Assembly (NCBI GenBank): GCA_963727825.1 | Contig: CAVSHO010000011.1 | Coordinates: 160,001 to 224,000 of the forward strand | Origin: Ignavibacteriota bacterium | GTDB lineage: Bacteria > Bacteroidota > Ignavibacteria > UBA10030 | Length of the DNA: 64,000 nt | Reading direction: 5' to 3' | Shown here: positions 10,287 to 52,604 of the stretch, one piece after another | Position numbering within the stretch: position 1 is the first letter of the stretch | Layout of the letters: each line of letters opens with the position of its first letter | Position numbers and translations under genes: made by a program | The notes under the pieces: generated by a model | The model's input: the letters and a program-made list of their open reading frames with translations, nothing else | Database searches by the model: none | What the model was told of the DNA's origin: nothing

Positions 10287-10691
10287 CTACCATTCCTTCA
10301 GGCTCAATGTCACCGTTCTTCCTAAACGTATACCTGATATTACGGTGCAAGAAATATTCTGATCTGTTTCGATCACTTTGCCATGTCCGATAACTACATT
10401 CTTTGGAATTCCATCAGATAGGTCAACTATACCAAAACTTGTACCTTTCTCGCTTGACACTTGAATTAAAAGCTTCGTCTTCGCCGGCATCGGTTTGTTA
10501 ATGGATGCCATGATCTTCCAATTGTTGGAATAGGTCGACAGGTTATAGTGTTGCTCTACCATTTTACTGTGAAAAGCGAGGAATCGATTGGAACCATTGT
10601 TCACCGAAATGAAACCTAAGAGCCTTATTTCATATGCACCGAGTGATGCTATTGACAGGAAGAATACAAGCACTAATAAACATTTTCGCAT
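10287..10691 (-). CDS. Small secreted beta-rich (pilin-like) protein, paralog 1
   Basis: Signal peptide, GGAGG RBS, near-identical to ORFs ending at 11243 and 11943; alternating C-terminal strand RTVTLSLKEW. Confidence 0.75.
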   Translation of the reverse strand: MRKCLLVLVFFLSIASLGAYEIRLLGFISVNNGSNRFLAFHSKMVEQHYNLSTYSNNWKIMASINKPMPAKTKLLIQVSSEKGTSFGIVDLSDGIPKNVVIGHGKVIETDQNISCTVISGIRLGRTVTLSLKEW

Positions 10692-10714
10692 TTTTTAAAT
10701 CCCTCCATTCATCA

Positions 10715-10885
10715 CTATATGTATTCCTGATAACCATTAAGATTGCCTGTGATGGAAATATCGGAAATCGGCTTCATTTCAAATGTGACCGATTGTGTAA
10801 TGCTATTATTACTACTTTGTGAGCGTAGTTTAACAGATGTTGTGACTACTAGTAGGAAAAGGACTATGACACTAAGTATTTTCAC
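10715..10885 (-). CDS. 56-aa truncated paralog of the pilin-like family (signal peptide plus N-terminal strand only)
   Basis: Below ORF-track cutoff. GTG start; MKILSVIVLFLLVVTTSVKLRSQSSNNSITQSVTFEMKPISDISITGNLNGYQEYI; FEMKPI matches YEMKPL/FEIKPL of the paralogs and the IVLFLL DNA matches paralog 2. Confidence 0.5.
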   Translation of the reverse strand: MKILSVIVLFLLVVTTSVKLRSQSSNNSITQSVTFEMKPISDISITGNLNGYQEYI

Positions 10886-11086
10886 CTGTATTGATTCTAA
10901 AATTTCTAACGAATAAACAGGGGAAATGGTTCCTGTACTTAAGAATGTATGGTCTTTATATGCTCATAGATAATTGAACTTTTATAATTGAATTGCATGT
11001 TATAATGATACATTGTTGTGTCATCGAGCTTTTGGGGGTAACGTTTATCCTATAATTAATGGGATTCTTAATAAAAAAAATCACAC

Positions 11087-11102
11087 TGGCATATAGATTG
11101 AC
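11087..11102 (+). promoter_or_regulatory. sigma54-type promoter copy with no downstream sense gene
   Basis: TGGCATATAGATTGAC, nearly identical (with ~25 nt downstream) to 37024-37060; enhancer-like ATGTTATAATGATAC at 10997-11011. Confidence 0.55.
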
Positions 11103-11242
11103 TAATATTCCTTGTTCCTATTTAATCAGTTAATAGGAATTAAATCGACGTTGGATGCAGAACAAATCTATGGAGACGTGTACAGAGATACGTAGTTTAT
11201 AGAAGTCTTATTTCCTACTGCCATTATGCTGATATTTGAGTG

Positions 11243-11704
11243 CTACCATTCCTTCAGGCTCAATGTCACTGTTCTTCCTAAACATGTACCTGATATAACG
11301 GTGCAAGAAATATTCTGATCTGTTTCGACCACTTTACCATTTCCGATAACTACATTCTTTGGAATTCCATCAGATAGGTCAACTATACCAAAACTTGTAC
11401 CTTTCTCGCTTGACACTTGAATTAAAAGCTTCGTCTTCGCCGGCATCGGTTCGTCAATGGATGCAATGATCTTCCAATTATTGGAATAGGTTGACAGGTT
11501 ATAGTGTCGCACTACCCTTTTACTATGAAAAGCAAAGAATCGATTGGAACCATTATTCACTGAAATGAAACCTAAAGGCTTTATTTCAAAAGCACCGAGT
11601 GATGCAATGGTTATCATTATAGCCAATAGGAAAAGGACTATGGTAATAGGACTTTTCAACCTCCACCCTGTGTAATCTTTAACAAAAAGATTTTTTATAG
11701 TCAA
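11243..11704 (-). CDS. Small secreted beta-rich (pilin-like) protein, paralog 2
   Basis: Near-identical mature region to paralogs 1 and 3; true start may be TTG at 11659. Confidence 0.75.
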   Translation of the reverse strand: MTIKNLFVKDYTGWRLKSPITIVLFLLAIMITIASLGAFEIKPLGFISVNNGSNRFFAFHSKRVVRHYNLSTYSNNWKIIASIDEPMPAKTKLLIQVSSEKGTSFGIVDLSDGIPKNVVIGNGKVVETDQNISCTVISGTCLGRTVTLSLKEW

Positions 11705-11732
11705 GTACTTTTTTATTTAAATTCTATTAAAA

Positions 11733-11856
11733 CATCCTCGCAATCCAGCCCGCCTGCTGCGGGCAGGCGTACGCGGGAGTCTAATGTTCTAGATACCTTC
11801 TGACTTTGCCGGGACGGGAATGACGCCACAAACGGCGGGGTATTAAACCCGAAAAA
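11733..11856. repeat. REP-like palindromic element cluster
   Basis: GC-rich hairpins (CGCCTGC..GCAGGCG; CGGGAATGAC end); 24-bp CGGCGGGGTATTAAACCCGAAAAA at 11833-11856 is identical to 18496-18519. Confidence 0.55.
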
Positions 11857-11942
11857 GAACAAATCTATTGAGGCGTGTAAAGAGATAAATCGTAGTTTAG
11901 AGAAGTCTTATATCCTGCTGCCACTATGCTGATATTTGAGTG

Positions 11943-12347
11943 TTACCATTCCTTTAAGTTTAATGTCACCGTTCTTCCTAAACGTGTACCAGATATAACG
12001 GTGCAAGAAATATTCTGATCTGTTTCGACCACATTGCCATTTCCGATAACTACATTCTTTGGAGTCCCATCCGACAGGTCAACTATGCCAAGACTTGTAC
12101 CTTTCTTGCTTGACACTTGAATTAAAAGCTTTGTTTTCGCCGGCATTGGCTCATCAATGGATGCTATGATCTTCCAATTATTGGAATAGGTCGACAGGTT
12201 ATAGTGCCGCTCCACCATTTTACTATGAAAAGCGAGGAATCGATTGGAACCATTATTCACCGATATGAAACCTAAGGGCTTCATTTCATAAGCGCCGATC
12301 GATGCAATTGACACGAAGAATACAAGTGCTAATAGACATTGTCGCAT
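11943..12347 (-). CDS. Small secreted beta-rich (pilin-like) protein, paralog 3
   Basis: ORF track 11943..12401; ATG at 12347 (MRQCLLALVFF) gives the same 405-nt length as paralog 1. Confidence 0.75.
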   Translation of the reverse strand: MRQCLLALVFFVSIASIGAYEMKPLGFISVNNGSNRFLAFHSKMVERHYNLSTYSNNWKIIASIDEPMPAKTKLLIQVSSKKGTSLGIVDLSDGTPKNVVIGNGNVVETDQNISCTVISGTRLGRTVTLNLKEW

Positions 12348-12416
12348 TTTTTTAAATCCTAACTGGTATTTTGTATTTATATTTGAATGCATGGTTTTCA
12401 TTTACGAAGTGAATAG

Positions 12417-12979: not shown

Positions 12980-15900
12980 TCATTTTTCCTCGAGGAGATT
13001 GTTCAATGCTTTTAAGCGAGATTCTACATTACGAGCATGGACATTATCAGGATACTGTTCATTGAGAGTCTGATAAGTGTTTCGGGCTTTTTCTCGCTCA
13101 CCTGTCTGCTCGTACGATCTGCCCAACATATAGTACGCATCAGGTTTTTTATTTGACGAATTAATAGCAATAACTTTTTGGAAATGCTCTATCGCGTTAT
13201 TATAATCACGGGTAGCATAATTGCATTCACCCATCCAATACTCACAATTACCGACGAGAGATGTTTCAATTCCCATCTCAATTAGACTGTTAAATTTCAC
13301 AAATGCCTCTTCGTACTTCTTCTCGCGGAACAGTGAAACTGCATCGGCATATTCTTCACGAAGCAAGGAATCACTATTTGCCTTCGATTCTGGCTGCGGC
13401 TCGGTCTCAGCTATTTCTTTATGAAGAGAAGTATCGATACCTTCATTCTGAGTTGGAATTGCTATCTGTTCCGTATATTCTTTGAGAATGGTGGAATCAG
13501 TTTTTTCTCTCTTCCCAGGCATAGAAATAATGAACTTTCTGACGGTATCTCTGGCTATGACTTTTGTCGTATCCATTTCTTGAACAGGTTTTGTAGTTTT
13601 TAACAGGCTTTCGCATACAATGACAAGGTCTTCAACTATATCCCCTTGCTTCGAGTGATGCACAGTAACAGGAAGCGGCCCGTTCTGCTGGATTGCTTGA
13701 AGAAATTTAAGTTGCTCGGGATCGACCGCAAGTGTGTAGCTCCCCGGCGCTACAGCCATTGCGTAGAATCCCCCATCAGCAAATGTGCGAAGCGTATCGC
13801 CGAAATTTCCTTTGGTGGCACGCATAATTACTCGGCTTCCACTGAGTGGAGTACGCATTCCATCCCTTTCTAAATAGACATTTCCAGAAATTGTCCCGGC
13901 GCGATAGAATGGGATTTCAATTCTCCTCATTTGATTCGGATCAACGACAAAAGAGAACTTATCGATTGTCGGCACTAAATTAGGATCGATCTGTTGTCTG
14001 TCGACCTCTAAATTGTAACGGAAGTAACTTTCCAGCTGCGTTACCCGGATAATACTGTCCCTACCAAGCTCGATCTTGCCCATTCCGTCTACTTTAATTC
14101 CGTTCGCGGGAATGAGCTCATCTCCGGCATCGTACTTACCGTTATAGTTGTTATCGACAAACAATAATACATCAATGCCCCCTTTACCGATCTGTTCGCG
14201 ATTTGATAGGAACGCCGTGCCGCGGTCAAGTGCCACTGAGCCATAAATTGATTGGCGGGAAGTACTGCTTTCATGTGAGAAGAAATCGAAGACCGAAGAT
14301 GTTCGCGTAAAATTTAGGTCCATAATCAGGCCAGCCTCAAACGAAGTAGTGTGGATTGCAAAGTTGCGCTCATATCCCAGATTGAATTGGAAGATCTGCA
14401 TAAATGTTTTAGAAAATTGGAGGCTCGCGTCCTGAAGGGTCCTGGCTTGCAAATCGTATATTGCCTGGCCACGCAGGAGAAATGCCTGCAGGAAATTTGG
14501 AAGAAACGATGAGCGAGGCAGCGTGTACATAAGCGTTGTTGTGAAGAGACCGTTACCGGCTAAGTTCAATGGACTTACATCAGTGCCAACTGTTACTTCA
14601 CTATAGCTCATCAGCAGCTGCATATTGGTAAACTGGGTTGAAAGATCGAATCGAGTTGACAAATGTTTTCCCGACACAGCATCCGTGTAGTCCTCGGAGA
14701 TCCTGAATCCGGTGCCGGCAGAGATAAACGCGAGAGGCAAGGAGAGAGCCAGGCTTGCATTCTGCTGCGGCGATGTGCCGATAAGCGTATCATTCAATAC
14801 ATATTTTGCGTACGAGGCAAACACGCCGGCGTTGGAGGCAAATAAAGCATTCGCATTCAAGAGGTAATACGCATTCGGCGCTACATTGACATTGAAAATG
14901 TACTGGGAAAACAAGCGGGATGAAAATCCAAAATTATATATCGGTTTCTGGAGACCGGTATTATCGCTGCGCTCGAGGCCGCCGTTGAGCGTTAGCCAGT
15001 TCGCAGCGCCATAGAGTAAATTTGCATTTCCATAATACGCATTATTCGTCGATACTGTATTATTATCCACTTTTCCTGCTTGTACATTGTAACTAAGAAT
15101 CCCCTTTGGTACAAACGAGAATGGTATCTGAATTTGTTTCTCACTAACATTTATATCACCATATTTGGAAAACGTTTTAACTGTAATTTTCTCTGTTCCG
15201 TACGTAAGCGGAAATTGAAATCGGTAGTAGCCCGCCGCGTTAGCTTTCTGAAAAGCAACCAGGCGGTCATTAAGGTACAATTCAACCTCGGACTGGGGAT
15301 CGGTGAATCCATCAACGACATAATTATCAAACATTACACGAGGTTCGACGGGCTCATTTGATAAGGCAATGCCGTTGACTCTCGGAATAAAATTGCTGCC
15401 GGTCGTAATCTGACCTGCCGTGAACGAGCTAAAATAGTTATTCCCCCGTACAACGTAACGCCAGTGGAGGTCGTCTACAGAAGCGGACTGCCCCGTTGTA
15501 CCAATCAGGCTACCCTGAATATCCCCTCCAGCCACTTCACCCCCGCCAGTGAGCGTATAATTCGTTCCCTGTGACGAGAATTTGTCTAACGAAGTAGATA
15601 TGTTGTAGTCTAGGACGGAGCCACCGAGGACTGAACGATCGAGAGCATAACGCAGCGGATATTTCACCGACGGGCCGAAGTCGCTTCCTACTTCCGAGCG
15701 TGCCAACGCTGCCTTCTTGCGAACGAGCGCAGGTAATTCCTTGGACGTCTCGCCGATAATCTGAAGACGGTTAATATTGACTGTGCTGCTGATACCAAAG
15801 ATTTCTTCGAATTTTTCAGTAGATATGTAAATATCCATCTCCCCTTTGAACATCTCTTCCAGCGTCAGTACATATACTTTATCTCCAAGGGAAATCTCAT

Positions 15901-16237
15901 GCCTGACCGGATTGATTGTCATTGGTATTGCAGAGGAGATATATGTCCCTTTAATGATATATTGTCCCTCGATGGTATAATACACTTCAAAGATATTAAA
16001 CAATTCTATAATAGGAAGATAGATTTTGTCATTCTTAATTGCGACTGATATGTTATAGCTGCCCAATTCCTTGAGAGTGTACCCAAATATTACTTCATCA
16101 TATTGGGAGGCTTGCTGCGATAGCGATTGGGATGGAACAAGAAAATAGAATAAAAAAAATATACTAAGCGTTAATAGCAGATTTCGCACAACGCCATTAT
16201 GGTTTTTTGATGGGATGAACTCACATTCCAGCGACAC
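12980..16237 (-). CDS. Atypical fimbrial usher-like outer-membrane protein with C-terminal Ig-like (SdrD-B/carboxypeptidase-regulatory-like) domains and a CpoB/YbgF-like TPR
   Basis: Signal peptide; amphipathic beta-strand core; usher-like VELYLNDRL...GYYRFQFPLTYG segment; LFVDNNYNGKYDAGDE and TFADGGFY..VAPGSYTL Ig motifs; YWMGECNY...KKPDAYYMLG TPR; directly downstream of a chaperone and pilin. Confidence 0.7.
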   Translation of the reverse strand: MSLECEFIPSKNHNGVVRNLLLTLSIFFLFYFLVPSQSLSQQASQYDEVIFGYTLKELGSYNISVAIKNDKIYLPIIELFNIFEVYYTIEGQYIIKGTYISSAIPMTINPVRHEISLGDKVYVLTLEEMFKGEMDIYISTEKFEEIFGISSTVNINRLQIIGETSKELPALVRKKAALARSEVGSDFGPSVKYPLRYALDRSVLGGSVLDYNISTSLDKFSSQGTNYTLTGGGEVAGGDIQGSLIGTTGQSASVDDLHWRYVVRGNNYFSSFTAGQITTGSNFIPRVNGIALSNEPVEPRVMFDNYVVDGFTDPQSEVELYLNDRLVAFQKANAAGYYRFQFPLTYGTEKITVKTFSKYGDINVSEKQIQIPFSFVPKGILSYNVQAGKVDNNTVSTNNAYYGNANLLYGAANWLTLNGGLERSDNTGLQKPIYNFGFSSRLFSQYIFNVNVAPNAYYLLNANALFASNAGVFASYAKYVLNDTLIGTSPQQNASLALSLPLAFISAGTGFRISEDYTDAVSGKHLSTRFDLSTQFTNMQLLMSYSEVTVGTDVSPLNLAGNGLFTTTLMYTLPRSSFLPNFLQAFLLRGQAIYDLQARTLQDASLQFSKTFMQIFQFNLGYERNFAIHTTSFEAGLIMDLNFTRTSSVFDFFSHESSTSRQSIYGSVALDRGTAFLSNREQIGKGGIDVLLFVDNNYNGKYDAGDELIPANGIKVDGMGKIELGRDSIIRVTQLESYFRYNLEVDRQQIDPNLVPTIDKFSFVVDPNQMRRIEIPFYRAGTISGNVYLERDGMRTPLSGSRVIMRATKGNFGDTLRTFADGGFYAMAVAPGSYTLAVDPEQLKFLQAIQQNGPLPVTVHHSKQGDIVEDLVIVCESLLKTTKPVQEMDTTKVIARDTVRKFIISMPGKREKTDSTILKEYTEQIAIPTQNEGIDTSLHKEIAETEPQPESKANSDSLLREEYADAVSLFREKKYEEAFVKFNSLIEMGIETSLVGNCEYWMGECNYATRDYNNAIEHFQKVIAINSSNKKPDAYYMLGRSYEQTGEREKARNTYQTLNEQYPDNVHARNVESRLKALNNLLEEK

Positions 16238-16494: not shown

Positions 16495-17343
16495 TCATTG
16501 CAAATTCACGGCCACTTCTTTAGTCACAGGTTGGGCTTGCAACAAATCTTCCGTCGCAACATCCGACCGCTTGGTTTCAAATGTCAGAAGAAGTTTATAC
16601 TTACCCTTTGCCACTTTTGAAAGGTCAAGGTCTATTTTGTTTTTCATGCGAAAATAAATTGATGCTGTCGCCTCGGACAAAGCTACCTTTTCATTTGCAG
16701 CAGAAAACAATTCTGCCTTCATACTGCCGACGTAAGGCGCGTTGCCAGTACGCTCCACATCCGCAACAACAGTTAGCTTATTGTCCTTCAATGCTGTATT
16801 AACATCGTGTACGATCAGGCCGGTAGAGACATTCCCTTTCCTGTAGAAAACAGGAAATATCTGGTCAAACTTGAAATTGACTTGTGCCGTGATTGCATCG
16901 GTTACTTTTTTCCCGATGTCGGGCGTTTTCTGAGCCGACGTTACCTTAACTCTGGAAAAAAAGAAAGCATCCTTAACAGAACTCTTCGTGCGCACTTGCA
17001 ACCTAACAGTTTGTTCTTGTTTAGCATTCAAAATAAAACTTCTTGGATAAGCACGGACCATTGGATTTAGCGCGTACGTTTTTGCAGCAACCGTATCGTT
17101 GTAATTCATTACGGCATTGCCCATACTGTCAGCATCGGTATATCCAAATGCAAAGCTTATGCTCACTTCTTGAGGAGCTGCAGAATTGTTTGTGATATAC
17201 ATATTCCCGATCCCGCTCTTGGAATCAATAAAGAGAATCGAGGGCGCTACGGTTACCTGGGCAAAAAGCATTTCTGTCCCCAGGAATATTATGGGTATCA
17301 GGAAGACAAATAATCTGGAACTGCAACACGACAGGCGTTTCAT
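16495..17343 (-). CDS. PapD-like periplasmic pilus chaperone
   Basis: Signal peptide; VTVAPSILFI...ITNNS...YPRSFILNAKQEQTVRL...FPVFYRKG...RTGNAPYVG two-Ig-domain chaperone pattern. Confidence 0.75.
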   Translation of the reverse strand: MKRLSCCSSRLFVFLIPIIFLGTEMLFAQVTVAPSILFIDSKSGIGNMYITNNSAAPQEVSISFAFGYTDADSMGNAVMNYNDTVAAKTYALNPMVRAYPRSFILNAKQEQTVRLQVRTKSSVKDAFFFSRVKVTSAQKTPDIGKKVTDAITAQVNFKFDQIFPVFYRKGNVSTGLIVHDVNTALKDNKLTVVADVERTGNAPYVGSMKAELFSAANEKVALSEATASIYFRMKNKIDLDLSKVAKGKYKLLLTFETKRSDVATEDLLQAQPVTKEVAVNLQ

Positions 17344-17429
17344 TCTGATATTTTCCCCTTTCTTAAAGAATTTATAATCCTAGAGAGAACGTAAATGTCA
17401 CTCATTCAGGAAATAAGCAACATAATAAC

Positions 17430-17463
17430 AAACAGAAAGCCCTGACGTAAGGGCTTCCTGTTT
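17430..17463 (-). terminator. Hairpin (partial terminator or mRNA stabiliser) after the major pilin candidate
   Basis: AAACAGGAAGCCCT-TACGTC-AGGGCTTTCTGTTT on the minus strand. Confidence 0.7.
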
Positions 17464-17509
17464 ATAACATTCTAATAAAGCAATAACTAATGATAATTGC
17501 AACGATTTT

Positions 17510-18034
17510 CTATTTGTATTCGACTGAAAAAGTCGATGCGCCTGTGAATGCACCCAGATCCGTACCTGTTGTCATGGTTCCTCCAACCCACAGAGAATAA
17601 TTGTTACTACTCGGTACCACGTCAGCACCAGAACTCAATAAACTAGCGTTTGCTAGTGAACTAGGGTCACCATAAACAGTGAGTGCCAACGACAAGGTTT
17701 TTCCTCCTGGACCGTTGAGCGTAATAGGTGATTGCCAACTTACTAAAACATCTGTATTTGCTCCAGTGATTGTAACCGTGCCAGCGGCAGCTTGGGAACC
17801 TAAATATGCGTTATTGGTTGAAGTTTTGGGATCGAGAACAACCGACCTGCTTGCCGGAACGTTACCAAACGCTATGTCGGTTTTAGCAATCGATAAAGCT
17901 GATATAACAGTCGCATTAGCATTGACATTGGTACTAACATTAGTCTGTGCCTGCATATTGCCGGCGACTAAAATCACCAGAATTGCTACTAAAAGGGTGG
18001 ATGTAAAAATATTGCGTAACATATGTACCTCCAT
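17510..18034 (-). CDS. DUF4402-type pilin-like protein, probable major subunit
   Basis: Signal peptide; ANATVISALSIAKTDIAFGN N-terminus, LWVGGT..GAFTGASTFSVEY C-terminus; own promoter and downstream hairpin. Start may be ATG at 18022. Confidence 0.75.
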   Translation of the reverse strand: MEVHMLRNIFTSTLLVAILVILVAGNMQAQTNVSTNVNANATVISALSIAKTDIAFGNVPASRSVVLDPKTSTNNAYLGSQAAAGTVTITGANTDVLVSWQSPITLNGPGGKTLSLALTVYGDPSSLANASLLSSGADVVPSSNNYSLWVGGTMTTGTDLGAFTGASTFSVEYK

Positions 18035-18103: not shown

Positions 18104-18280
18104 CTCAATCTCCGTGCCAACATAAATTCCCGCTTTTTTCAACGATTTTCAAGCATTTAAAAAACTATTATGTCCATAATGAGATTGCTGACTCATATTG
18201 AGAATTTTGATATTTACTGTAAACACGCGATATTCTCAAAAAACCAATATTCTCAATATATTTCAGTATCATAATGATAC
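18104..18280 (-). promoter_or_regulatory. sigma54-type promoter and enhancer sites for the pilin-chaperone-usher unit
   Basis: TGGCACGGAGATTGAG (rc of 18104-18119); GACTCATATTGAGAA 18190-18204; palindrome GTATCAT-A-ATGATAC 18266-18280. Confidence 0.75.
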
Positions 18281-18419
18281 ATAATTGTTATATACTTATT
18301 CTTATAATGGTATTTTACAATATTTTAAGGTTTTTAAAATACACATTTATTGATCGATTAGCAAATGATGTTACAAACCATACTGTCTTTTCTTAGTGTC
18401 CGAAATATGGGGTAAGGAT

Positions 18420-18519
18420 CACCGAAACAAGTGGCGCTGTACACCATGGCGCCAAAGGCGCTCATTCGGCATGACAATCTATAATACGACGCAAGCGGCG
18501 GGGTATTAAACCCGAAAAA
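18420..18519. repeat. REP-like element cluster
   Basis: CCGAA...TTCGGCATGAC ends, internal TGGCGC repeats, and the 24-bp sequence shared with 11833-11856. Confidence 0.45.
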
Positions 18520-18661
18520 TAATGAAACCATTAACAAATATTGTTTTAGAAGAATATACTATGGGACAGTTTCTTCGAAGTTCAGAGATTAAAAAGTCGA
18601 ATTATCAAAAGGATTTTATAGCTATTTGTTGCTGGATTAATCTATAGAAGAATGGGTCTTT

Positions 18662-19251
18662 TTACAAATACTCGAGAGTTATAATCGAGACAGGCAATTT
18701 ACCATTATTACTTATTGTAGCTTTCTGATGATGGACTAAGAAAAATGTATACGCGACAAAAAGTGGGTCAATAGCTTTCATCGAGCGCTTTAAAAGATTA
18801 TTATTTCTTAATCTAAATTGCACAAAATTTCCGTCTGTGATTATCGCCCGATTGAAATAAGTTGTCCCATCATTTAAATATCCGCAGTTAATTCGCATCG
18901 GATAGACACTCTGTTCATTCTTTTGAGACAATCCGGGCTTGTAAAACTCAGAAGAACAGTAATATTTTCATAAGCTGAGATAGAGAATCCAAAATCGAGG
19001 CTAACGATATCTTCATTACCAGGTTTTGCTGATGCCAATTCATTCAAATGTGTTATATCTTCTGCAAACAAAGTTCTCAAGTTATCATCCATCCTAGTAA
19101 TATTTACAGATGGTAAAACATTTAGCTTGACCTTCATCAAAGGCGTTATTTGTGCCTGACTCTCTCCCGACAGCCCGACGATCAATGCCATTGCGACTAC
19201 CGCAGTTCCGATTATGCGAGCATGGAAGCTATGCCATCTTTGATTCGTCAT
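18662..19251 (-). CDS. Secreted pilin-like protein split by a frameshift near 18935
   Basis: ORF 18874..19290 (likely start ATG 19251, signal peptide ..GESQAQ) and ORF 18662..18931 (CGYLNDG...IITLEYL) join; the C-terminal xEY strand matches the neighbouring pilins. Confidence 0.6.
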
Positions 19252-19258
19252 AGCTATA

Positions 19259-29300: not shown

Positions 29301-32300
29301 GTTATACCAGGTATCATATAGCGATCGTCCACCGGGCGCTTCGGCATTATTATATGTAAATCTTAATTTCGTGTTTATAGCTGAGTATCCAGCGCTGATC
29401 GTGAGTGTCCAATACTTGCTTAAAGTATTTGCGCCTTGATTCACAGTAGTTGCACTGATTTGGAGATTTCCGGTACCGGTTGCGGTAAAACCACCGATGG
29501 TAAGATCCAAAGGATCATAATACCCGCCTGACCCGACAGGATAAACGATGCCAATACCAGTACCGCCGGTTCCGCCTGCTTTTTGTAAATAACCGGTGCC
29601 ACTGGTTTGAATCATGGCTGTGGTACTATATGATCCTGCAATGGCATTTGCGGCTTGATTGCTTAGAAGTAAATTATAGTTGCCGATGGTTAAAACGCCG
29701 GAAGTCAGAGTCAAGGTACTGGAAACTGTGAGCGTGCAAGCCAGAACAACAGACATGCCGCTTGTCTGATTCAGTGTAAGATTGTTAAACGTCTGACTTG
29801 CTGCCGTTCCGTTAATGTTTTGCGAGCCAGTGCCATCGAAGACAACCGTTCCGGTTCCGTATGTAAACGTCCCACCGTTGTTCGTCCAGTCACCGGCGAT
29901 ATTGTGTGTAAATGCGCCACTTGTGAATGTTGTCCCCGATCCTATCACAACATTTCCACCGATAGTCAAACCGACAACTCCCGTTGTTGTTGCAGTGCCG
30001 CTTAATGTCAGATTGCCACCGATCGCAGTGGTGCCGGTTTGTAGAGTCTTAGCACCACTGTTACTGAGGGTGAGATTATAATAATTAGTATTAATAACTG
30101 TCTGTGTACCTGCATATCCGTAATTAACTGTATTTCCAGTTGCTGTGGCAATAAAATCCGCAGCTGGAATACCTGGAGTCCCTGTAAAATTAATATTTAT
30201 GGTGCCAGTGGTTCCATTAGTTAAGGTGCCTGTGCCAGATTGAGCTAATGCCGTTGTGACGGTTAATGTTCCATTGTTCGTATATGTACCGCTCACCGTG
30301 ACGCTCGGAATTGAAATGGGATTTGTTCCACCAATCGTTTTTGTGGCACCAGAGAATGTTTGCACACCCGTGCTGGCGGTGTATGTTCCGTTATTTGTGA
30401 GACTCCCCGCAATACCAACAACCGCTGCTCCATTTTCAGTTAATGTACCGTATATCGTAACATCGGAACTAAAGGTAAGTGCTTCTGCCACGCTTTCTGT
30501 AAAATTACCCCCACTATTAATAGTCACTGCGCCAGTAAATGTCTTTGTGCCGGTTGTAGAAGTTATTGAGAGTGTTCCGCTCATTCCTCCACCGACGGTG
30601 GTTGTACCGTTTACTGTCAAATTGAAACCTGCCACAGTAAATGTCGTTCCATCTCCAATAACAAGACTTCCGACGGTCAAACCAACGACTGTTGTCGCAG
30701 ATGCAGTTCCACTCAACGTCAAAGCACCGCTAATCGTTATCGTACCGGTTTGCAATGTTTTCGCACTGGTGTTGCTTAATGTTAAATTGTAATAATTAGT
30801 ATTAATAACTGTTTGTGTACCTGCATATCCGTAATTAACTGTATTTCCATTTGTTGTGGCAATAAAATCCGCAGCTGGAATACCTGGAGTCCCTGTAAAA
30901 TTAATATTTATGGTGCCGGCGGCTCCGTTAGTTAATGTGCCTGTGCCAGATTGAGCTAATGCTGTTGTGACGGTTAAAGTTCCATTGTTCGTATATGTAC
31001 CGCTCACCGTGACGCTCGGAATTGAAATGGTACTCGTTCCACCAATTGTTTTCAATGAACCAGAAAATGTATGCACACCCGTGTTTGCAGTGAACGTTCC
31101 GTTGTCTGTGAAATTACCGGCAACACTGACAGTCGCTGCCACGGATTCCGTTAGTGTGCCGCCGCTGTTTATGGTAATATCCGAACCAAATGTGACCGCG
31201 GCAACAGTACCACTCAATGTTATAGAACCGCCATTATTGATAGTTACAGCGCCTGTAAAGGTATATGTATGGTTCTGAGTAATAGATATTGGGCCGCTTA
31301 CAGAAGCAGTGCCACCCACACTAAAATTGAAATTTCCAATCGTGAGCGTCGTGCCGGAGCCGACGTTAAGATTGCCGCCGACAGCCAAATTGGACGTAGT
31401 AGTTGTCGATACTGTACCACTCAGAGTCATATTCCCGTTGATCGCTGTCGTATTGTTCTGCAGAACATCTGTTCCGCTTCCGCTTAATGTAAGATTATAA
31501 TAAGTCGTAGAATTAATCGTTTGTGATGCACCACTGTAATTAACCGTTCCGGCTGTATTGGCAGTAAGAGTGGTAATTGTAGGTACGGTGTTATCGCTAA
31601 TGTTAAGTGTACCAGTGTTGGTAAGAGCAGTAATTGTGCCCGAACTGACAAGGTTAGTTGTGCCAGAGTTGGTAATACCAGCAATAGTGCCAGTGCCATT
31701 GAGATTAAGCGTACCAGTGTTTGTAAAATTAGCAAGAGCTGTACTAATTGCACCAGAACCACTGATAGCTGTTGTTCCTGCATTTGTAAGAGTGGTAACT
31801 GAGCAAGTTCCACCAATATTCAGTGTGCCTGTCGAACTATTGCTCATTGTACCTGTACCAGCTAACGCTGTGCCAACAGTCAATGTTGCATTGTTTGTGT
31901 ACGTGCCGTTAACTGTGACGCTTGGGATGGAAATCGCATTTGTTCCGTTAATAGTCTTTGTCGTTCCGGAAAATGTATGCACACCTGTGCTGGCGGTGTA
32001 TGTTCCGTTATTTGTGAAACTTCCTGCAATACCAACAACCGCAGTCGTATTCTCCGTTAATGCACCGCCGTTATTAATAATAACATCCGAACCAAATGAA
32101 AGCGTGGCAGCAGCACTCTCAGTGATAGCGCCGCCGTTATTGATTGTTACAGCGCCGATGAAGGTCTGAGTGTTTGTTGCAGCTGTAGATATCGCCAGCG
32201 TACCACCTGTTCCGCCACCTACAGTAGTTGTGCCCATTACAGTAAGTGCATATGTAGCGTTAGATGTAAATGTCGTTCCATCTCCTATCGAAAGATTGCC

Positions 32301-35300
32301 GCCGATGGTAGTTGCAATACCTGTACTGGTATTCGTACTTCCACTTGTACTAAGGTTATTAAACGTTGTACTTGCCGAACCACCGATGACCTGAGTTGTT
32401 CCATTGAAAGTAACAGTGCCAGTAGCGGGTGTAAATGTGCCTCCATTGTTCGTCCAGCTACCGCTTACGATAAGAGTATTTGTCGTGCTGTTGGTAAGCG
32501 TTGCTCCAGAATTAATGACAATGGAACTTGCCGTCTGATTATTTGTATTTATTGTGATAGTGCCCGTGCTTTGAATTGTAATTTGAGTTGCTGAACTTGT
32601 AGGAGCCGCTGTTGCCAGATACCAATTAATGTTGTCATGTGAGCTCTGCCAATTTGATGCGGTGCTCCAGTTTCCTGTGGCGATGGATCTGAAATAATCA
32701 GTTGCCGAAGAAGTGAATGCTGGTCCTACAACAAAGTCACTAAAACTATTTAGTCCTGATACTTGGGTTGTATAAGGTCCGGAACCTGCATTTATTACGG
32801 GAGTTGGAGATGTCCATACCGACGCAGTATATTTACCGACAATAAAACCAGTATTATTACTACCTCCAATAATATCACCTGCATTATAAGTGAACGTCGG
32901 AGAATAAGTAGTAAAAACAATGCCAGAATTAGTTAAAGTCCAATACAAGCCAACATCTTTTGAACCATCTACCGGTGAGCCGGTATTAGGTTCTTGTCCG
33001 GAAGTAACGTTGGCAGTGAGGTTTCCTCCAGTCGTGACCGATGCAAAATTAACACTAACAGGAGTATAGCTTGAGGATGTTCCCACATCAAAAGTATAAT
33101 TATTAGCTCCTGTAGCAATTGCTCTTTGCAGGTTGCCTACTATCTGCCCGCTTGTCCGAGATACAGCGTTGGCTGCACTATTTGTGACAATAAGTGTGTA
33201 AGATCCCGTAGCAATATTCCCCGAGTTTAACTTGAGGTTATTACTTACCGTTGTTGCTGCCCCAAGTGTCCCTATTTGTGTTGACTTGTCTATCGTAAGG
33301 TTATAATATGTTGTACCATTTATTGTCTGCCCTCCGGTTGTGCTGTTGTAATCTGCCGTATTGCCTGTCGCAGTCGCCGTCAGTGTAGTCGATCCAACCG
33401 TTGCTGCACCTATATTAAGAATCGCATTTGCAGCTTGCACAAAAGTACCGGTACCTGCCCATGTGGTGGTAATATTTAATCCCCCTGCAGCAGTAATGTT
33501 ATTAGTGAGACCCGTTCCCGTGCTGCTGACAGTTATATTGGTAAAGGTGGTCGCGTTTCCATTTATGGATTGTGAAGCGCCTAAAAATGTATAAGTACCT
33601 GTACCTGAATTAAATGTTCCTGTATTGGTAAAATTGCCTGTACTAATTGTCACCGGTTCATTCACCGTATTATTATTCCATGTTCCACCGTTTATATTTA
33701 AACTGCTTACTGTTATCAGAGGTGTTGCTTGAGCCGTGGTGATATTTACAACTCCTCCGGTATTTACAGTTACAGCACCCATTGACCTTGTTCCGGTAGC
33801 ATTATTAAAAGTTAATGTGCCCGTTACAGAAGTGGTCCCTGTTACAGTTAAACTTGTTGCAAAACTGCCAACGAACAATGTACCGCCGCTGACAACAATA
33901 TTACCGCTTACTGAAGTAGTAGTGGTTGTATTGCTGAATACGACTCCGGACGCATTGCTATTATTAAACTCAAGATTACCAAATGTATTAGTTGCGCCAC
34001 CGATAGTTTGAGCATTTGAACTACTCATTAAAATTTTTCCTGCACCTGAATGAGTAGCGTTATTCATTACATTACCATTTACTGTAATTGCATATCCGCC
34101 ATCGGCGAATGTTTCACCGGCTGTCGCTATGGTCAAATTACCTGCAACCGTAATCGCACTTGTTACCGTCTTTGTTCCTGAGGCGCCCGTGATTGTTAAA
34201 TGACCATAGGTCGAAGGACCTACACTTGTAACGCTACCTGCAACATTTTGTGCATTGGTGATTGTGTTATAATTTACCGTTGAAGTTGGATTCAAAGTAA
34301 TATGAGCAGTAGTAAAGTTTGTTGGGAACGAAGTTATTGTTGCGGTGCCTGCGCCGATCTGCAAGGTCGCTCCGGCGGCAACACTCAAAGTTCCTGTTGC
34401 GTTTCCAGTTATCTGGAAGCCGCCATCGGCAAGTGTGCCGTTATTAATAGTAAGGTTACCACTCACTGTGAAAGCTCCGCCCAAAGTAGCCGTATTTGAA
34501 GATTTATCAACTGTAAGATTGAAATAAGGATTGGTTGTAGGCACTTTTATTGTTTGAGCTGCCGTACCCGTGTAGGTAACCAAGTTTGCACTGGTGGCAG
34601 GAATTATAGTTCCGGTTATACTCGTATTTGCCAAAGAAAAACTACCACCGGATGCATTAGTAATAGAACTAGCTCCTGCAATGGCTGATGTCCCTGTTGA
34701 ATTCAATGTTCCATTATTAGTTAATGCAGCATTTATAGTAAATGTACCAGATACATTTACCGTAGTACTGGCATTAATAGCTGTAGCGCCCCCAATAGTT
34801 AGTAATCCAAATGATAATGGATTACCCCCTAAAGTTTTAGTCGCACCATTCAGTGAAGTGGTTCCTGTGGAAGCAGAAAGATCGAAAGATGTTCCATTGT
34901 TGGTTATATTTCCACCGAAGTTAATAGCTGCTGCAACAGCAGTCGCATTAAATGTACCACCACTGATTATAGTTACATCACCGGTAAAAGTTTTTGAACC
35001 GGTTGCATTGTTTATTGACAAGGTACCGGTTACAGAAGTAGTCCCCGTTACAGTTAAACTTGTTGCAAAACTGCCAACGAACAATGTACCGCCGCTGACA
35101 ACAATATTACCGCTTACTGAAGTAGTAGTGGTTGTATTGCTGAATACAACTCCGGATGCATTGCTATTATTAAATTCAAGATTACCAAATGTATTAGTTG
35201 CGCCACCGATAGTTTGAGCATTTGAACTACTCATTAAAATTTTTCCTGCACCTGAATGAGTAGCGTTATTCATTACATTACCATTTACTGTAATTGCATA

Positions 35301-36394
35301 TCCGCCATCGGCGAATGTTTCACCGGCTGTCGCTATAGTCAAATTACCTGCAACCGTAATCGCCTGAAGCCGCTGTTTTTGTGCCTGAGCCCTTGAATGG
35401 TAAGATTTCCATAGGTCGATGGACCGGCACTTGTAACGTTTCCAGCAACATTTTGTCCATTGTGATCGTAGAATTATAATATTACCGTTGAAGTAGCGAC
35501 TAAAGTAATATGAGCAGTAGTATAAAGTTTGTTGGGAACGAAGTTCTTGTTGCGGTGCCTGCGCCGATCTGCAAGGTAGCTCCGTTGGCAACACCCAAAG
35601 TTCCTGTTGCGTTTCCAGTTATCTGAGAATCCGCCATCGGCAAGTGTGCCGTTGAGCACCGATAAATTATTACTCACCGTTGTTGCCGCGCTTAATGTGA
35701 CACCAGCGCTGTTGTTGATCGTAAGATTAAGTGGTGTAGTTGATGTTAATCCATTTCCGGTTACTTGGGCTGCTGTACCATTGTAAATGTAATTTGCTCC
35801 TGCAGTATATGTTCTTGTAGTAGTCTGAATATTACCTGTAGCTCCTGCTGTTGAAATACCGGCTGTTGAACCAACTTGAAGTGTAGCGGTTGCTGCATTG
35901 ATAAACACACCAGCGCCACTTATAATCCCGGCTGGTGGCATAACAAGTGTACCATTGTTAGTAAAAGTATTTGCAGCATTTCCTTCCGTAACAGTTCCAT
36001 TGACAGTCCCTGTAGCTGTCGCTGCGAGTGTAATATTCGGCCTAGTACCATTTGTGTTATTCAATGTGAAGGTCTTTGAAGCAGCTACACTGAATGTTGT
36101 GCTGATAGTAATAGTATTCCCATTTGCAGAAGCTGCAAAAGTACAGGTTCCGTTAATAGTCAGACTATTTAAAGTTATCGTTGGTACTGCTGTAATATTG
36201 CCCGTTTGATCGGCGGGAATAATTACATCATCACCCGTAGTTGGTACCGTGCCACCCCAATTGGCCGCTGTAGTCCATGCACCGCCTGTTGTCGGACTCC
36301 AGGTTCTAGTTGCTGCCATTACCGTTGCGCCAATGAACACAACCATCACCAACAGAACGTTCAGTGCATGCGATATATGATATTTCTTTTTCAT
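20370..36394 (-). CDS. Giant (~5,340 aa) Thr/Gly/Asn/Ser-rich beta-helix-like surface protein with T9SS type-A C-terminal sorting domain; frameshifted near 35360-35630
   Basis: ORF 35474..36400 gives the signal peptide (MKKKYHISHALNVLLVMVVFIGATVMA); ORF 20370..35594 gives the rest, ending QNYPNPFNPTTNITFSIP...SGVYFCRM..TKKMVVLK. The junction lies in a repeat whose intact twin shows the correct frame. Confidence 0.85.
30080..31050. repeat. Intragenic direct repeat (~260 nt, period 711 nt = 237 aa)
   Basis: 30080-30340 matches 30791-31050 (ISIPSVTVSGTYTNNGTL...GYAGTQTVINTNYYNLTLSN); a more diverged copy lies near 31880-32160. Confidence 0.85.
33823..35653. repeat. Intragenic direct repeat (~620 nt, period ~1206 nt)
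   Basis: 33823-34442 matches 35029-35653 (GTLADGGFQITG...AITVAGNLTIATAGETFADGGY...SLTVTGTTSVTG). Confidence 0.9.
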
Positions 36395-36775
36395 TACCAA
36401 GAATTACAAATTATTATCTATGATAGATTCTTATTCCATTATTAATCTGCGAAAGCATTGGTTGCCATCGGTTGCACATGCAATTGCTGCTTGCTAGAAA
36501 GGTACGGTGTACACACTTCAATTCTCCCCCAGAAGTTTACATACAATGCCTTTTCCAGAAGTGTCATGCCCACCTTTATTCTCTTCATATGTAAAATACG
36601 CTTTATTAAGTTCTGTTTCCCTTACAAACTTTCCAGATTTCAATGAACTTATATAAACTGCTTAACATTTTTTTTATAGTAAAAATCTATTCATTTGATA
36701 ACCAAGAATGAAAGGGATAGTATAGTTTTTTAAAAAAATCATTACTTATTTAACCTATTTATTCATATAAATTAT

Positions 36776-37039
36776 GTCAATCTACGTGCCATCACAGATT
36801 CCCTTTTTTAAGGAATTTTCGAGTAATCAGTTCAGACTTGTGCACTATTTCGAGAATATTGACTCATAATGAGAACACGAATATACTGCGTAAATTAACG
36901 ATAAGAATCAAAATTGGACTTTTATTATACAATTGAGTATCATAATGATACATGGCTGTAGCGTTTAGTATTTTGATTTGGCATTTTCTACATAATTATT
37001 AGCAATTTTTATAAAAAATATGCTGGCATATAGATTGAT
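36776..37039. promoter_or_regulatory. Divergent pair of sigma54-type promoters sharing enhancer sites
   Basis: Minus: TGGCACGTAGATTGAC (rc 36776-36791). Sites: GACTCATAATGAGAA 36861-36875 and GTATCATAATGATAC 36937-36951. Plus: TGGCATATAGATTGAT 37024-37039. Confidence 0.75.
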
Positions 37040-37118
37040 TGATATTCATTGTCCTTATTTAACCTATCACAATAAATTGCCTTTGATTATGAAATCATTG
37101 ACAAGAGGTGTAAATAGT

Positions 37119-37832
37119 ATGTACAGTGAGCCGGCTGTTTTTGGAACTCAAAAATTGAAGAGCAAAATTGTCAAGCAGATTTCGCATGAATTTCGTACGC
37201 CTCTTACTTCCATAATTGGCTTCGCCGAGATGCTCGAGGAAGATATCCAGATCAACGAAAATCAGCGGATAGAATATGCAAGTTATATCCGGAACGAGGG
37301 GCTGCGGCTAACGAAACTTGTTGACGACCTTGTCGGACTTGATTCTCTTGAGCAAGGACAGGTTCACCTTCAATTGGAAGAATCTGAAATTCAGGAAACA
37401 GTACGGTATGCCGCAAAGTTTGTCGCGGAACAAGCACTTAATAAGTGCATCCACCTTTCTATCGAGATGCCAGACGAACCTATCCTTCTAAACATTGACC
37501 GTGAAAGAATCGTTCACGCTTTATATCAATTACTCCATAATGCCGTTCGATTCACAAAACCTTGTGGCCTTATAAATCTAAAAGTAGAAGCGGCCGACAA
37601 GTTTGCTATAATCTCCATCCATGATGATGGTCCTGGTATTCCGGAAAAAGATATACCATTTCTATTTACAAGATTTGGAAAGCTATACCGTTCAGGCGAA
37701 GAAACGCATGGCAGCGGAGTTGGACTCGCAATCGTAAAACATATTATTGATCAGCATAACGGCGATATCGCTGTACAAAGCAAAGTCGGAGAAGGTTCAA
37801 CCTTCACAATACAAATTCCGATTCTTTCGTAA
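37119..37832 (+). CDS. Histidine kinase (HisKA + HATPase only, no sensor domain)
   Basis: SHEFRTPL, LLHNAVRFT, DDGPGI, GSGVGL boxes. ORF track starts at 37020, which overlaps the promoter; ATG 37119 has a GAGGTG RBS. Confidence 0.85.
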   Translation: MYSEPAVFGTQKLKSKIVKQISHEFRTPLTSIIGFAEMLEEDIQINENQRIEYASYIRNEGLRLTKLVDDLVGLDSLEQGQVHLQLEESEIQETVRYAAKFVAEQALNKCIHLSIEMPDEPILLNIDRERIVHALYQLLHNAVRFTKPCGLINLKVEAADKFAIISIHDDGPGIPEKDIPFLFTRFGKLYRSGEETHGSGVGLAIVKHIIDQHNGDIAVQSKVGEGSTFTIQIPILS

Positions 37833-37880
37833 TGATTCATTAGAAATCCTTTTTTTCCAAATAGAGGAATTAAATCTATA

Positions 37881-39260
37881 TTGAGCGCAGAACGAATCTA
37901 TATTGTTGATGATGAAATAACAATTGCCAAGCTGCTTGAATTGTGGGTCGGGCATCGATGGGGGTACTCTGTTGAGGTTTTCCATAATGGAAAAGATTTT
38001 TTAGATCGCATAGTAGAGCCTCCTGACCTTGTATTGTTGGACATTATGCTGCCAGATATAAGTGGTATTGATTTATTGAAAGAGTTCAAGCGACGCTATC
38101 CCGAGCTGCCTGTTATCATGCTTTCTGCGCAGGAAAGTATCGAGGTGGCGGTTAATACTCTTAAACTAGGAGCCGCCGACTATTTTAGTAAACCAATTGA
38201 CATGCCGAAGCTGGAACTTGCAATAAAAAATTCTCTCAAACTTGCAGCATTATCCCGTGAAGTTGAGAATTTGCATGAAAGCGTCGGAACACGTTTGCAT
38301 TTCGACAATATAGTTTCACAGAGCGGGGAAATGCAAGATGTGTTTAAACTCGTGAACAAGGTAATGCACATCGATATTTGTGTTCTCATATTAGGCGAAA
38401 GTGGCACAGGCAAAGAGCTCGTAGCTCGTGCAATTCATTATAACAGCGACCGCCGAAGTGGTCCATTTGTAGTCGTGAATTGCGCTTCAATTCCTCACGA
38501 CTTATTAGAAAGCGAACTCTTCGGGCATGAGAAGGGTTCATTTACCGGCGCAATTCAGCGGCGAATTGGAAAATTTGAGCAGGCGAATGGAGGTACAATA
38601 TTTTTAGATGAGATCGGCGAACTTGATCAAAGCCTGCAATCAAAAATACTCCGTGTTATCCAGGAAAAACAATTTGATCGAGTAGGAGGAAGTGAGACAA
38701 TCACAACCGATGCACGACTTATTTTTGCTACACACCGCGATCTTTGGGAAGAAGTGAAACAGAAGAATTTCCGCGAAGATTTATACTTCCGTATTTCGAC
38801 ATTTCCGATTATGCTTCCTCCTCTCCGCCAGCGGAAATCGGATATTCTTTTGCTTGCAGACCATTTTATAAAAAAACTTGGGGAGGAACTCGGGAAGCCA
38901 AATATTCAATTTTCACGCAAAGCTCTCGACTTGCTCTACAACTATCCATGGCCAGGCAACGTGCGCGAATTAGAAAATGTAATTCAACGCGGTTTGGTCT
39001 TGACAGACGGACAGATATTTAGCGAGCGAGAATTACCGATCTTTATTCAGTCTTATGGTTCTGCTGAAACAGACATCAAACAAAATTCAATCTTCCAAGA
39101 GAGCCAGGATTCAATCATTTCATTCGAGAAAATTAAAGAAACCGCTATCCGACAAGCTTTGAAAAATACAAACGGGAATATAGCAGAAGCTGCAAAGAAA
39201 TTAAAAATCGGCCGTGCTACTCTTTATCGGCTCGTAGAAAAATACAAAATTCAAATTTGA
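37881..39260 (+). CDS. NtrC/AtoC-family sigma54-dependent response regulator
   Basis: Receiver (IVDDE, LLDIMLP), Walker A GESGTGKE, GSFTGA loop, FLDEIGEL, WPGNVRELEN, Fis-type HTH. Confidence 0.95.
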   Translation: MSAERIYIVDDEITIAKLLELWVGHRWGYSVEVFHNGKDFLDRIVEPPDLVLLDIMLPDISGIDLLKEFKRRYPELPVIMLSAQESIEVAVNTLKLGAADYFSKPIDMPKLELAIKNSLKLAALSREVENLHESVGTRLHFDNIVSQSGEMQDVFKLVNKVMHIDICVLILGESGTGKELVARAIHYNSDRRSGPFVVVNCASIPHDLLESELFGHEKGSFTGAIQRRIGKFEQANGGTIFLDEIGELDQSLQSKILRVIQEKQFDRVGGSETITTDARLIFATHRDLWEEVKQKNFREDLYFRISTFPIMLPPLRQRKSDILLLADHFIKKLGEELGKPNIQFSRKALDLLYNYPWPGNVRELENVIQRGLVLTDGQIFSERELPIFIQSYGSAETDIKQNSIFQESQDSIISFEKIKETAIRQALKNTNGNIAEAAKKLKIGRATLYRLVEKYKIQI

Positions 39261-52601: not shown

Positions 52602-52604
52602 CTC

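Follow-up and report, generated by a model that had tools for sequence, protein, structure and literature searches.

The pili that have been characterized in Bacteroidota are type V pili, and the surface protein SprB of Flavobacterium johnsoniae, which ends in a type B C-terminal domain (CTD) and is encoded with sprC, sprD and sprF, moves along the cell surface in gliding. In P. gingivalis, among the Mfa fimbrial proteins, only Mfa5 carries a C-terminal signal domain for the T9SS (type IX secretion system), as far as the accessible text of PMC7835359 goes; according to the same text, a block of the T9SS stops the export of Mfa5 and not that of the other fimbrial proteins, and Mfa5 is located at the fimbrial tip (PMC7835359). 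Chaperone-usher families are listed only in Proteobacteria, Cyanobacteria and Deinococcus-Thermus in the accessible portion of PMC4654587, and the word 'Bacteroidetes' does not occur in that portion. Judged from listings and abstracts, the literature that we searched describes neither a chaperone-usher system in Bacteroidota nor a coupling of such a system to the T9SS, and a full-text literature search on the Pfam family DUF4402 found no paper. Here, we analyzed a window of 64,000 nt from an Ignavibacteriota bacterium (GCA_963727825.1, contig CAVSHO010000011.1, positions 160,001-224,000; all positions below are window coordinates) and found a conserved seven-gene cassette with two halves, a chaperone-usher-type assembly line and a modular T9SS cargo protein, which in this genome is encoded by a giant gene. 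The original prediction for this DNA had pictured a fibre that is assembled by an usher-like pathway and displays or anchors a giant adhesin exported by a second route; as a whole, its observations were partly confirmed and its interpretation is partly supported.

Gene order and linkage of the cassette

The minus strand carries every gene between 10287 and 36400, in agreement with the original prediction. In the order of transcription, we found a 308-aa open reading frame (ORF) and a 5074-aa ORF, which both belong to the giant gene, then the genes for subunits A, B, C and D, the genes for a chaperone-like and an usher-like protein, and three paralogous genes. The 308-aa ORF at the 5' end of the giant gene (35474..36400, minus strand) begins with a signal-peptide-like stretch and weakly matches G8, and the 5074-aa main ORF (20370..35594, minus strand) runs up to subunit A (19870..20373, minus strand; 167 aa, DUF4402-type), whose start codon overlaps the stop codon of the giant gene. 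Subunit B (19259..19873, minus strand; 204 aa, distantly DUF4402-type) is joined to A by an ATGA overlap; the two ATGA overlaps that had been predicted, at 20370-20373 and 19870-19873, are both present. Gene C (18662..19290, minus strand) has a frameshift near 18930 and is read as two ORFs, 18874-19290 and 18662-18931. Subunit D (17510..18034, minus strand; 174 aa, DUF4402 family) is the candidate major subunit and has a hairpin with a 16-pair stem directly after it (17428..17465, minus strand). The chaperone-like gene (16495..17343, minus strand) and the usher-like gene (12980..16237, minus strand) complete the cassette.

We surveyed the linkage of these genes in one genome per species, scanned with an alignment of the chaperone, and obtained 42 related loci (labelled L001 and so on). 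Eight of the 42 end at contig ends before subunit A, and 34 reach far enough upstream. In 34/34 of these, a homologue of the last ~600 aa of the giant lies directly upstream of subunit A, and no locus with enough upstream sequence is without a CTD gene (0/34). The gene with the giant's CTD is thus recurrently linked to subunit, chaperone and usher genes. The junction between the big gene and A is tight in 32/34 loci, where an ATG of A is placed between 4 nt before and 13 nt after the point at which the big gene ends; the two remaining loci have spacers of 293 and 368 nt. Synteny extends to the whole cassette, as the order big gene-A-B-C-D-chaperone-usher is kept throughout the related loci. 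We consider it very probable that the cassette is a functionally linked unit.

The cassette is carried by Ignavibacteria-like and Bacteroidales metagenome-assembled genomes (MAGs), by MAGs labelled Sphingobacteriaceae or Chitinophaga, and by cultured Cyclobacteriaceae of the genera Algoriphagus, Cognataquiflexum, Aquiflexum, Rhodonellum and Mariniradius. Among the carriers are the cultured type strains of Algoriphagus ratkowskyi, A. mannitolivorans, A. marincola, A. alkaliphilus, Rhodonellum psychrophilum and Mariniradius saccharolyticus. All named sources are Bacteroidota, Ignavibacteria-like lineages or Balneolales, except for six MAG loci. These six (L017, L023, L024, L037, L040 and L041) come from MAGs labelled Limnohabitans, Reyranella or Planctomycetota; their cassettes closely resemble those of Algoriphagus, and their 37-43% identity to the window's chaperone is in the same range as that of the Algoriphagus loci. 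The cassettes under these three labels may be binning errors.

The exported cargo and the assembly line

At its extreme C-terminus, the giant carries a T9SS type A C-terminal sorting domain (20379..20609, minus strand; TIGR04183, PF18962), which occupies residues 922-998 of the last 1000 aa (~77 residues). A type A CTD had been predicted here, and both curated models place it well above their cut-offs (TIGR04183 49.4 bits, cut-off 23; PF18962 48.2 bits, cut-off 27). In the related loci, Por_Secre_tail forms the C-terminal end of 18/18 upstream proteins tested; 12/18 reach the gathering score, and the other six matches score 21.8-26.8 bits. In front of the CTD lies a conserved module of ~500 aa (20658..22115, minus strand), composed of two conserved blocks and a variable linker, and this pre-CTD module is common to all upstream CTD proteins of the related loci. 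These proteins range in length from 988 aa to more than 2576 aa. Their N-terminal passengers vary between loci (DUF285, Ice_binding, YDG), while the module remains 31-37% identical across families. When we searched with the module only, we obtained 104 clusters, of which 88 have PF18962 (counted from the table), with many different passenger families; Bacteroides sedimenti, Fodinibius salsisoli and a Balneolales bacterium are among the named sources. An Atlas search with the module returned only unnamed or CTD-bearing clusters, and in sequence and profile searches of solved structures in PDB the module matched none apart from the CTD, which weakly matched T9SS CTDs. A hidden pilin domain in the module was considered and rejected (hhalign probability at most 0.5% versus A-D, no hmmsearch match at E <= 10). 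In L032, two proteins with module and CTD stand in tandem upstream of subunit A (3-1457 and 2862-7694). Some module matches lie on contigs of 34779, 39416, 47189 and 18040, sizes equal to those of contigs with chaperone hits, which suggests co-location.

The big protein could in principle be a classical tip adhesin that leaves through the usher, with an Ig-like 'CTD' that would target it to the chaperone and usher and with no role for the T9SS. The domain that joins chaperone-usher adhesins to their fibre is indeed C-terminal. The T9SS CTD is itself described as an Ig-like beta-sandwich in the accessible text of PMC4804311. However, the CTD found here exceeds the cut-offs of the curated models for T9SS type A, the solved structures that it weakly matches are CTDs of T9SS proteins, and it is unlike the DUF4402 subunits; the named sources, bar the six possibly misbinned MAG loci, are Bacteroidota, Ignavibacteria-like or Balneolales. 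Passengers of several thousand residues are also unlike known usher substrates. We regard export of the big protein through the usher as extremely improbable.

The chaperone-like gene encodes a periplasmic protein of 282 aa with two Ig-like domains, for which sequence searches of Pfam, NCBIfam and PDB gave no match. Its model (pLDDT 79.3) is a two-domain beta protein, and its best Foldseek matches in PDB are chaperone-usher chaperones with E-values of 5e-9 to 5e-7. The best matches, EcpB, SafB, Caf1M, FimC, CsuC, CfaA and PapD, have TM-scores of 0.49-0.59 relative to the target and span all three classes of chaperone-usher chaperones, with CsuC scoring no better than the classical chaperones and with other two-Ig-domain proteins scoring close to all of them. 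A word-indexed search gave 133 relatives of the chaperone, some of which are named 'P pilus assembly chaperone PapD' or 'fimbrial biogenesis chaperone' by their sources, and an exhaustive search gave 1254 representative clusters at E <= 0.001. In an alignment, the family's invariant Lys133 falls opposite the Lys of FimC 'NVK'; with a probability of 1.1%, this match was not relied on.

The usher-like outer-membrane protein has 1085 aa (model pLDDT 75.9), and its top listed Foldseek matches (ranks 1-18) are all FimD or PapC, with E-values from 2e-29 to 3e-13; the next match has an E-value of 2e-10. It carries extra C-terminal Ig-like domains and ends in a YbgF/CpoB-like TPR domain (residues 955-1085; 12983..13375, minus strand), which has a TM-score of 0.86 to the Xanthomonas YbgF TPR domain. 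TPR repeats (TPR_2) are present in only 5/27 usher relatives, and in L009 the TPR domain is a separate ORF after the usher. The PDB sequence and profile searches gave nothing relevant apart from TPR matches and the weak matches to T9SS CTDs mentioned above. The predicted pair of a PapD-like chaperone and an usher was therefore recovered at the level of fold by Foldseek but not by the curated Pfam sequence models. Since the profiles do not align significantly with the E. coli Fim proteins, the likeness is one of fold and gene context and not of a curated sequence family; on this basis, the 282-aa and 1085-aa products are probably a PapD-like chaperone and a FimD/PapC-like usher.

For the small secreted proteins, we gathered families of subunits A, B, C and D from the related loci. 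At E <= 0.01, DUF4402 matches 31/36 members of the D family (best E 1.7e-14), 15/28 of A, 6/31 of B and 1/29 of C. In the window itself, A scores 25.0 bits and B 19.8 bits versus the DUF4402 (PF14352) gathering cut-off of 25.2, and D has no match. The archaic (sigma, Csu-type) class of chaperone-usher systems has subunits of the spore-coat-protein-U type; apart from DUF4402 and DUF7827, the D family has no match in Pfam at E <= 0.01. When we compared the families with each other by hhalign, we found kinship between A and D (99.5%), B and D (96.3%) and B and C (92%). The three coupled genes described as pilin-like are thus paralogous and DUF4402-type, although C is split and A and B stay below the Pfam cut-off, and D can be kept as a DUF4402 major pilin candidate on the strength of its family but not of the window's own copy. 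Intact homologues of C have 196-222 aa. D and A have ordinary signal peptides followed by alternating hydrophobic residues, and both keep a Gly ~14 residues before the C-terminus as well as a Tyr at the penultimate position (-2). This pairing of a Gly near position -14 with a penultimate Tyr is the hallmark C-terminal motif of chaperone-usher subunits. Because D has its own promoter-like site and the 16-pair hairpin, and because D genes occur in tandem in L001 (6538-8141) and L003 (171-1730), it is likely to be the major subunit, with A, B and C as probable minor subunits or tip subunits. Over the whole region, terminator-like sites are not above shuffles (8 versus a shuffle mean of 7.9).

These subunits could also form something much shorter than a fibre, a surface socket in which a DUF4402 oligomer, assembled by chaperone and usher and attached to the outer membrane, would hold the cargo after removal of the CTD, instead of lipid anchoring. 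The linkage across loci would fit a socket as well as a fibre, the data hold no sign of a long polymer, and the usher has its extra C-terminal Ig-like domains and, in 5/27 relatives, TPR_2 repeats; to our knowledge, classical ushers have neither. In contrast, D looks like an abundant polymerizing subunit, with its own promoter, its hairpin, its tandem copies in L001 and L003 and its Gly/Tyr motif, and four subunit classes exceed the needs of a simple socket. We find a socket quite improbable.

The model that we favor, and that we hold at slightly less than even confidence, is a DUF4402 fibre built by chaperone and usher, with a T9SS-exported cargo whose module is docked on the minor subunits. 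In this model, the subunits would cross the outer membrane through the usher and polymerize by strand exchange, with D forming the rod. The cargo would cross the outer membrane through the T9SS, and its conserved module would dock onto the minor subunits A-C at the cell surface. The resulting fibre would be a stalk that presents interchangeable and possibly adhesive passengers, as Mfa5 is presented on the type V Mfa1 fimbria. The passenger in this genome would consist of ~4,700 aa of repeats, followed by the ~500-aa module and the type A CTD.

The same genes could instead specify two structures that are co-regulated and physically separate, a chaperone-usher-like fimbria and a T9SS adhesin anchored in the outer membrane as T9SS cargo usually is, both serving a single programme of adhesion or biofilm formation, with the module acting as a cell-proximal stalk or anchor. 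The absence of sequence likeness between module and subunits would fit such a separation, as would the presence, in this lineage, of two units with separate promoters; the accessible text of PMC5053529 and PMC12860637 describes Bacteroidota T9SS cargo as anchored to the surface through lipopolysaccharide. However, the tight or overlapping junctions of the big gene and A in 32/34 loci point to a minor subunit in fixed stoichiometry with the big protein, and co-regulation has no need of such a ratio. A module that is kept at 31-37% identity while the passengers are swapped fits a conserved partner, and among the 34 loci none is missing the CTD gene. We judge two separate structures to be somewhat unlikely.

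Several findings nevertheless weigh against the docked-fibre model. The window's chaperone has no match to Pfam PapD_N (PF00345), and only 2/32 sampled chaperone relatives match this family, both below its cut-off (E 2.9e-4 and 5.2e-3). The Pfam Usher model gives the window's protein 18.7 bits versus a cut-off of 27.1 and matches 4/27 usher-family members at E <= 0.01. When profiles of the chaperone, usher and D families were compared with E. coli K-12 FimC, FimD and FimA, the probabilities were 1.1%, 0.3% and 4.8%, and PDB sequence and profile searches with these three families gave no solved chaperone, usher or pilin. The module has no similarity to subunits A-D (hhalign probability at most 0.5%), so no donor-strand-type interface can be proposed from sequence. 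A complex prediction that paired mature subunit A with the module (alignment A5, residues 55-550), run without controls, gave a score of 0.00 versus a mark of 0.32 and counts neither way; the argument for docking comes from gene linkage and from the module's conservation. No T9SS core gene (sprA, porV/U, gldKLMN/porKLMN) was seen in the window, and T9SS models at E <= 1e-5 gave no match among the 31 flanking ORFs scanned within it. Finally, gene C is broken as sequenced, and the long giant ORF as deposited has no signal peptide, the signal-peptide-like start being on the separate 308-aa ORF; the window's copy of the cassette may be inactive, unless these breaks are assembly errors.

Frame breaks, regulation and neighboring genes

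The giant had been described as a single protein of ~5,340 aa. We found instead two ORFs (308 and 5074 aa) in different frames, as the stretch 36400..20370 has 16031 nt (3n+2). As sequenced, the giant therefore does not combine an N-terminal Sec signal peptide and the CTD on the same polypeptide; the complete homologues that were inspected start with a hydrophobic leader. An internal repeat copy at 33754-34490 aligns both with the 3' end of the short ORF and with the long ORF at its 5' end (92% mean column identity). Relative to this in-frame copy, six frame changes are needed to follow the repeat homology across the junction at 35365..35640 (minus strand; about 275 nt), and the other ~15.7 kb of the gene are without frame breaks. 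The junction lies inside a repeat whose two copies are 1.2 kb apart and ~94% identical. Long direct repeats within the gene include a 300-nt pair at 33788-34087 and 34994-35293 (94% identical, spacing 1206 nt) and further families with a spacing of 711 nt around 29959-32116. At the protein level, ~4,000 aa of the giant are repeats rich in threonine, glycine and asparagine, and the ~4,000 aa that precede the CTD have no Pfam or NCBIfam match. The window also contains a third broken gene, a LarA-like nickel-dependent hexonate epimerase gene (41089-42302, minus strand), which a frameshift near 41373-41403 divides into frames of 309 and 104 aa. A third broken and unrelated gene hints at indel errors in the assembly.

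Decay of the cassette in this genome, with the giant and gene C as true pseudogenes and functional copies in the relatives, would be compatible with any of the explanations above. It would account for six frame changes in the 5' part of the giant, for the one in gene C and for a long giant ORF without a signal peptide. However, six indels in ~275 nt versus none in the other ~15.7 kb is not a pattern of neutral decay, and the cluster sits within a repeat that has a ~94% identical copy at a distance of 1.2 kb, a setting in which errors of the consensus are likely. The frameshift in the LarA-like gene near 41390 also points to indel errors in the assembly, and the remaining cassette is intact and 76-86% identical to L001. 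We consider decay unlikely, and the frame breaks in the giant and in gene C are more likely to be consensus errors.

Divergent from the cassette, on the plus strand, are a histidine kinase gene (37020..37832; HisKA and HATPase_c domain matches) and a gene for an NtrC-type response regulator (37881..39260) with a receiver domain, a sigma54-interaction AAA+ domain and a Fis-type helix-turn-helix (Sigma54_activat E 4e-70). Upstream of the giant gene, we found the 16-nt palindrome TGTATCATTATGATAC (36937..36952), a candidate activator binding site, 161 nt upstream of a sigma54-like -24/-12 element, TGGCACGTAGATTGA (36777..36791, minus strand), which itself is about 380 nt upstream of the giant's start codon. 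A second exact TGTATCATTATGATAC palindrome (18266..18281) lies 162 nt upstream of another sigma54-like -24/-12 element, TGGCACGGAGATTGA (18105..18119, minus strand), 70 nt upstream of D, and these two are the only exact copies of the palindrome in the window. The giant and D elements share TGGCACG.AGATTGA, in which the -12 part reads TTGA versus the canonical TTGC (GA, not the GC of the GG-N10-GC consensus). A relaxed -24/-12 pattern is not enriched in the window (7 found; 22/100 shuffles reach 7). In L001, the two D genes are each preceded by the same pair of palindrome and element (spacing 163 and 162 nt), and the palindrome recurs with the same spacing in L003. A strict sigma54 pattern before D is present in 1/36 loci with a D gene (L001), and also in L003, which is outside that set; in L009, a TTGC variant lies inside an over-extended D ORF. 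The Cyclobacteriaceae loci are without the sigma54-type design, and among the related loci an NtrC-type regulator stands beside the cassette only in L007 and L008.

In the window, no same-strand -24/-12 element was found before the paralogs or before the chaperone and usher genes. Upstream of the paralog gene par1 (10960-11110), there is a partial copy of the control region between the divergent giant and kinase genes (36900-37045), with plus-strand TGGCATATAGATTGA at 11087-11101 and 37024-37038 and with a degenerate palindrome at 10997-11012 (3 mismatches); the promoter-like site at par1 is directed away from the paralog genes. A shared sigma54 promoter and enhancer design, which had been proposed for all units, is thus present at the giant and D units but does not extend to the paralog array or to the Cyclobacteriaceae loci. 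As read from sequence, the sigma54 circuit appears to overlie two transcription units and to be specific to this lineage, in which an NtrC-type activator would drive giant-A-B-C and D-chaperone-usher from sigma54-type promoters.

The three paralogous genes at the end of the array (10287..12401, minus strand) encode small secreted proteins of 134, 153 and 152 aa, a family without a name. They are real repeats, 89-94% identical over 300 nt. The suggestion that they form a pilin-like array did not hold, as they have hhalign probabilities below 1% versus A-D, match no family and are absent from 42/42 related loci; as pilins, we rejected them as unsupported. Neither Pfam nor NCBIfam gave a match, PDB sequence and profile searches gave nothing relevant, and an Atlas search returned only unnamed Bacteroidota clusters of low recognition value. 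We found only 48 close relatives, all at least 63% identical and in Ignavibacteriales-like records. The paralogs are lineage-specific neighbors outside the conserved cassette. Some matches to the paralog family lie on contigs of 20971, 16506 and 3340, sizes equal to those of contigs with chaperone hits, which suggests co-location. A 47-nt element has copies, 83% identical, downstream of par3 (11823-11869) and downstream of C (18486-18532); it could serve both as a terminator or could be a repeat element. Unrelated neighbors in the window include a gene for a GWxTD-domain protein (46105-47457) and a gene for an RNA ligase of the RtcB family with a small conserved gene (PRK00407) after it (51183-53024).

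Comparison with known systems

The genes described here may specify a modular display appendage of Bacteroidota and Ignavibacteria that needs two secretion systems, with a fibre of DUF4402 subunits from a very divergent, previously unrecognized branch of the chaperone-usher pathway and a plug-on T9SS cargo, a reading to which we give somewhat less than even odds. If it is true, one fibre type could present ice-binding-like, DUF285, Ig-repeat or giant repeat passengers, the chaperone-usher pathway would extend to a new phylum, and the cassette would add to Mfa5 another instance, with a different mechanism, of a pilus tip that comes from the T9SS. The uncharacterized Pfam family DUF4402 would gain a function as the subunits of a chaperone-usher-like line, and the question would arise of how the products of two outer-membrane export routes join into one structure. 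The swapped passengers also suggest a natural scaffold for surface display. Because cultured type strains carry the cassette, genetics and microscopy are feasible.

Pfam DUF4402 (PF14352) has no assigned function. Subunit families D (31/36) and A (15/28) resemble it by profile match, whereas the window's own proteins are below its cut-off or without a match and the link to families B and C is remote. Like the cargo described here, SprB is a very large surface protein of repetitive sequence that leaves through the T9SS; unlike the cassette, it is not known to have chaperone, usher or DUF4402 genes adjoining it.

In the chaperone-usher pathway, subunits have an incomplete Ig fold and an N-terminal donor strand and assemble through donor-strand complementation and exchange. 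The chaperone-usher pili (classical Fim/Pap, archaic Csu/CupE and alternative ECP/CFA-I) share with the cassette a chaperone of two Ig-like domains, an usher of the FimD/PapC fold (here by predicted structure), several small paralogous secreted subunits encoded beside the machinery and bearing the Gly/Tyr C-terminal motif, and a hairpin after the gene of the candidate major subunit. In contrast to these pili, the cassette proteins do not reach the cut-offs of the three curated Pfam families, and the chaperone, usher and D families have no significant profile match to E. coli FimC, FimD and FimA. The cassette's subunits are of the DUF4402 type, its usher bears additional Ig-like domains and in this genome ends in a YbgF-like TPR tail, and its large 'adhesin' gene carries a T9SS tag and not a pilin domain. 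The hosts differ as well, as the cassette is found in Bacteroidota and Ignavibacteria-like bacteria.

The Mfa1/Mfa5 system is similar in that a large multidomain accessory protein with a T9SS signal domain (Mfa5, 1228 aa) is encoded in a fimbrial operon, within the accessible account of PMC7835359. The fibres themselves are different. Unlike the cassette, the Mfa fibre is of type V, with lipoprotein precursors that polymerize after gingipain cleavage and with no chaperone or usher, whereas the subunits of the cassette have ordinary signal peptides and adjoin a chaperone and an usher. In the cassette, the big gene comes first and overlaps subunit A, and the cargo family shares a pre-CTD module while its passengers are swapped, again unlike Mfa. 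The original prediction knew of no characterized system with such an arrangement. Mfa5, described in the accessible text of PMC7835359 as a T9SS-exported tip, is a precedent in part, and the listings and abstracts that we searched gave no description of the chaperone-usher version. Taken together, a pilus tip supplied by the T9SS is already characterized, in type V pili, as far as the account in PMC7835359 extends, and what is new here is the chaperone-usher-like machinery, the DUF4402 subunits and a conserved docking-type module with swapped passengers.

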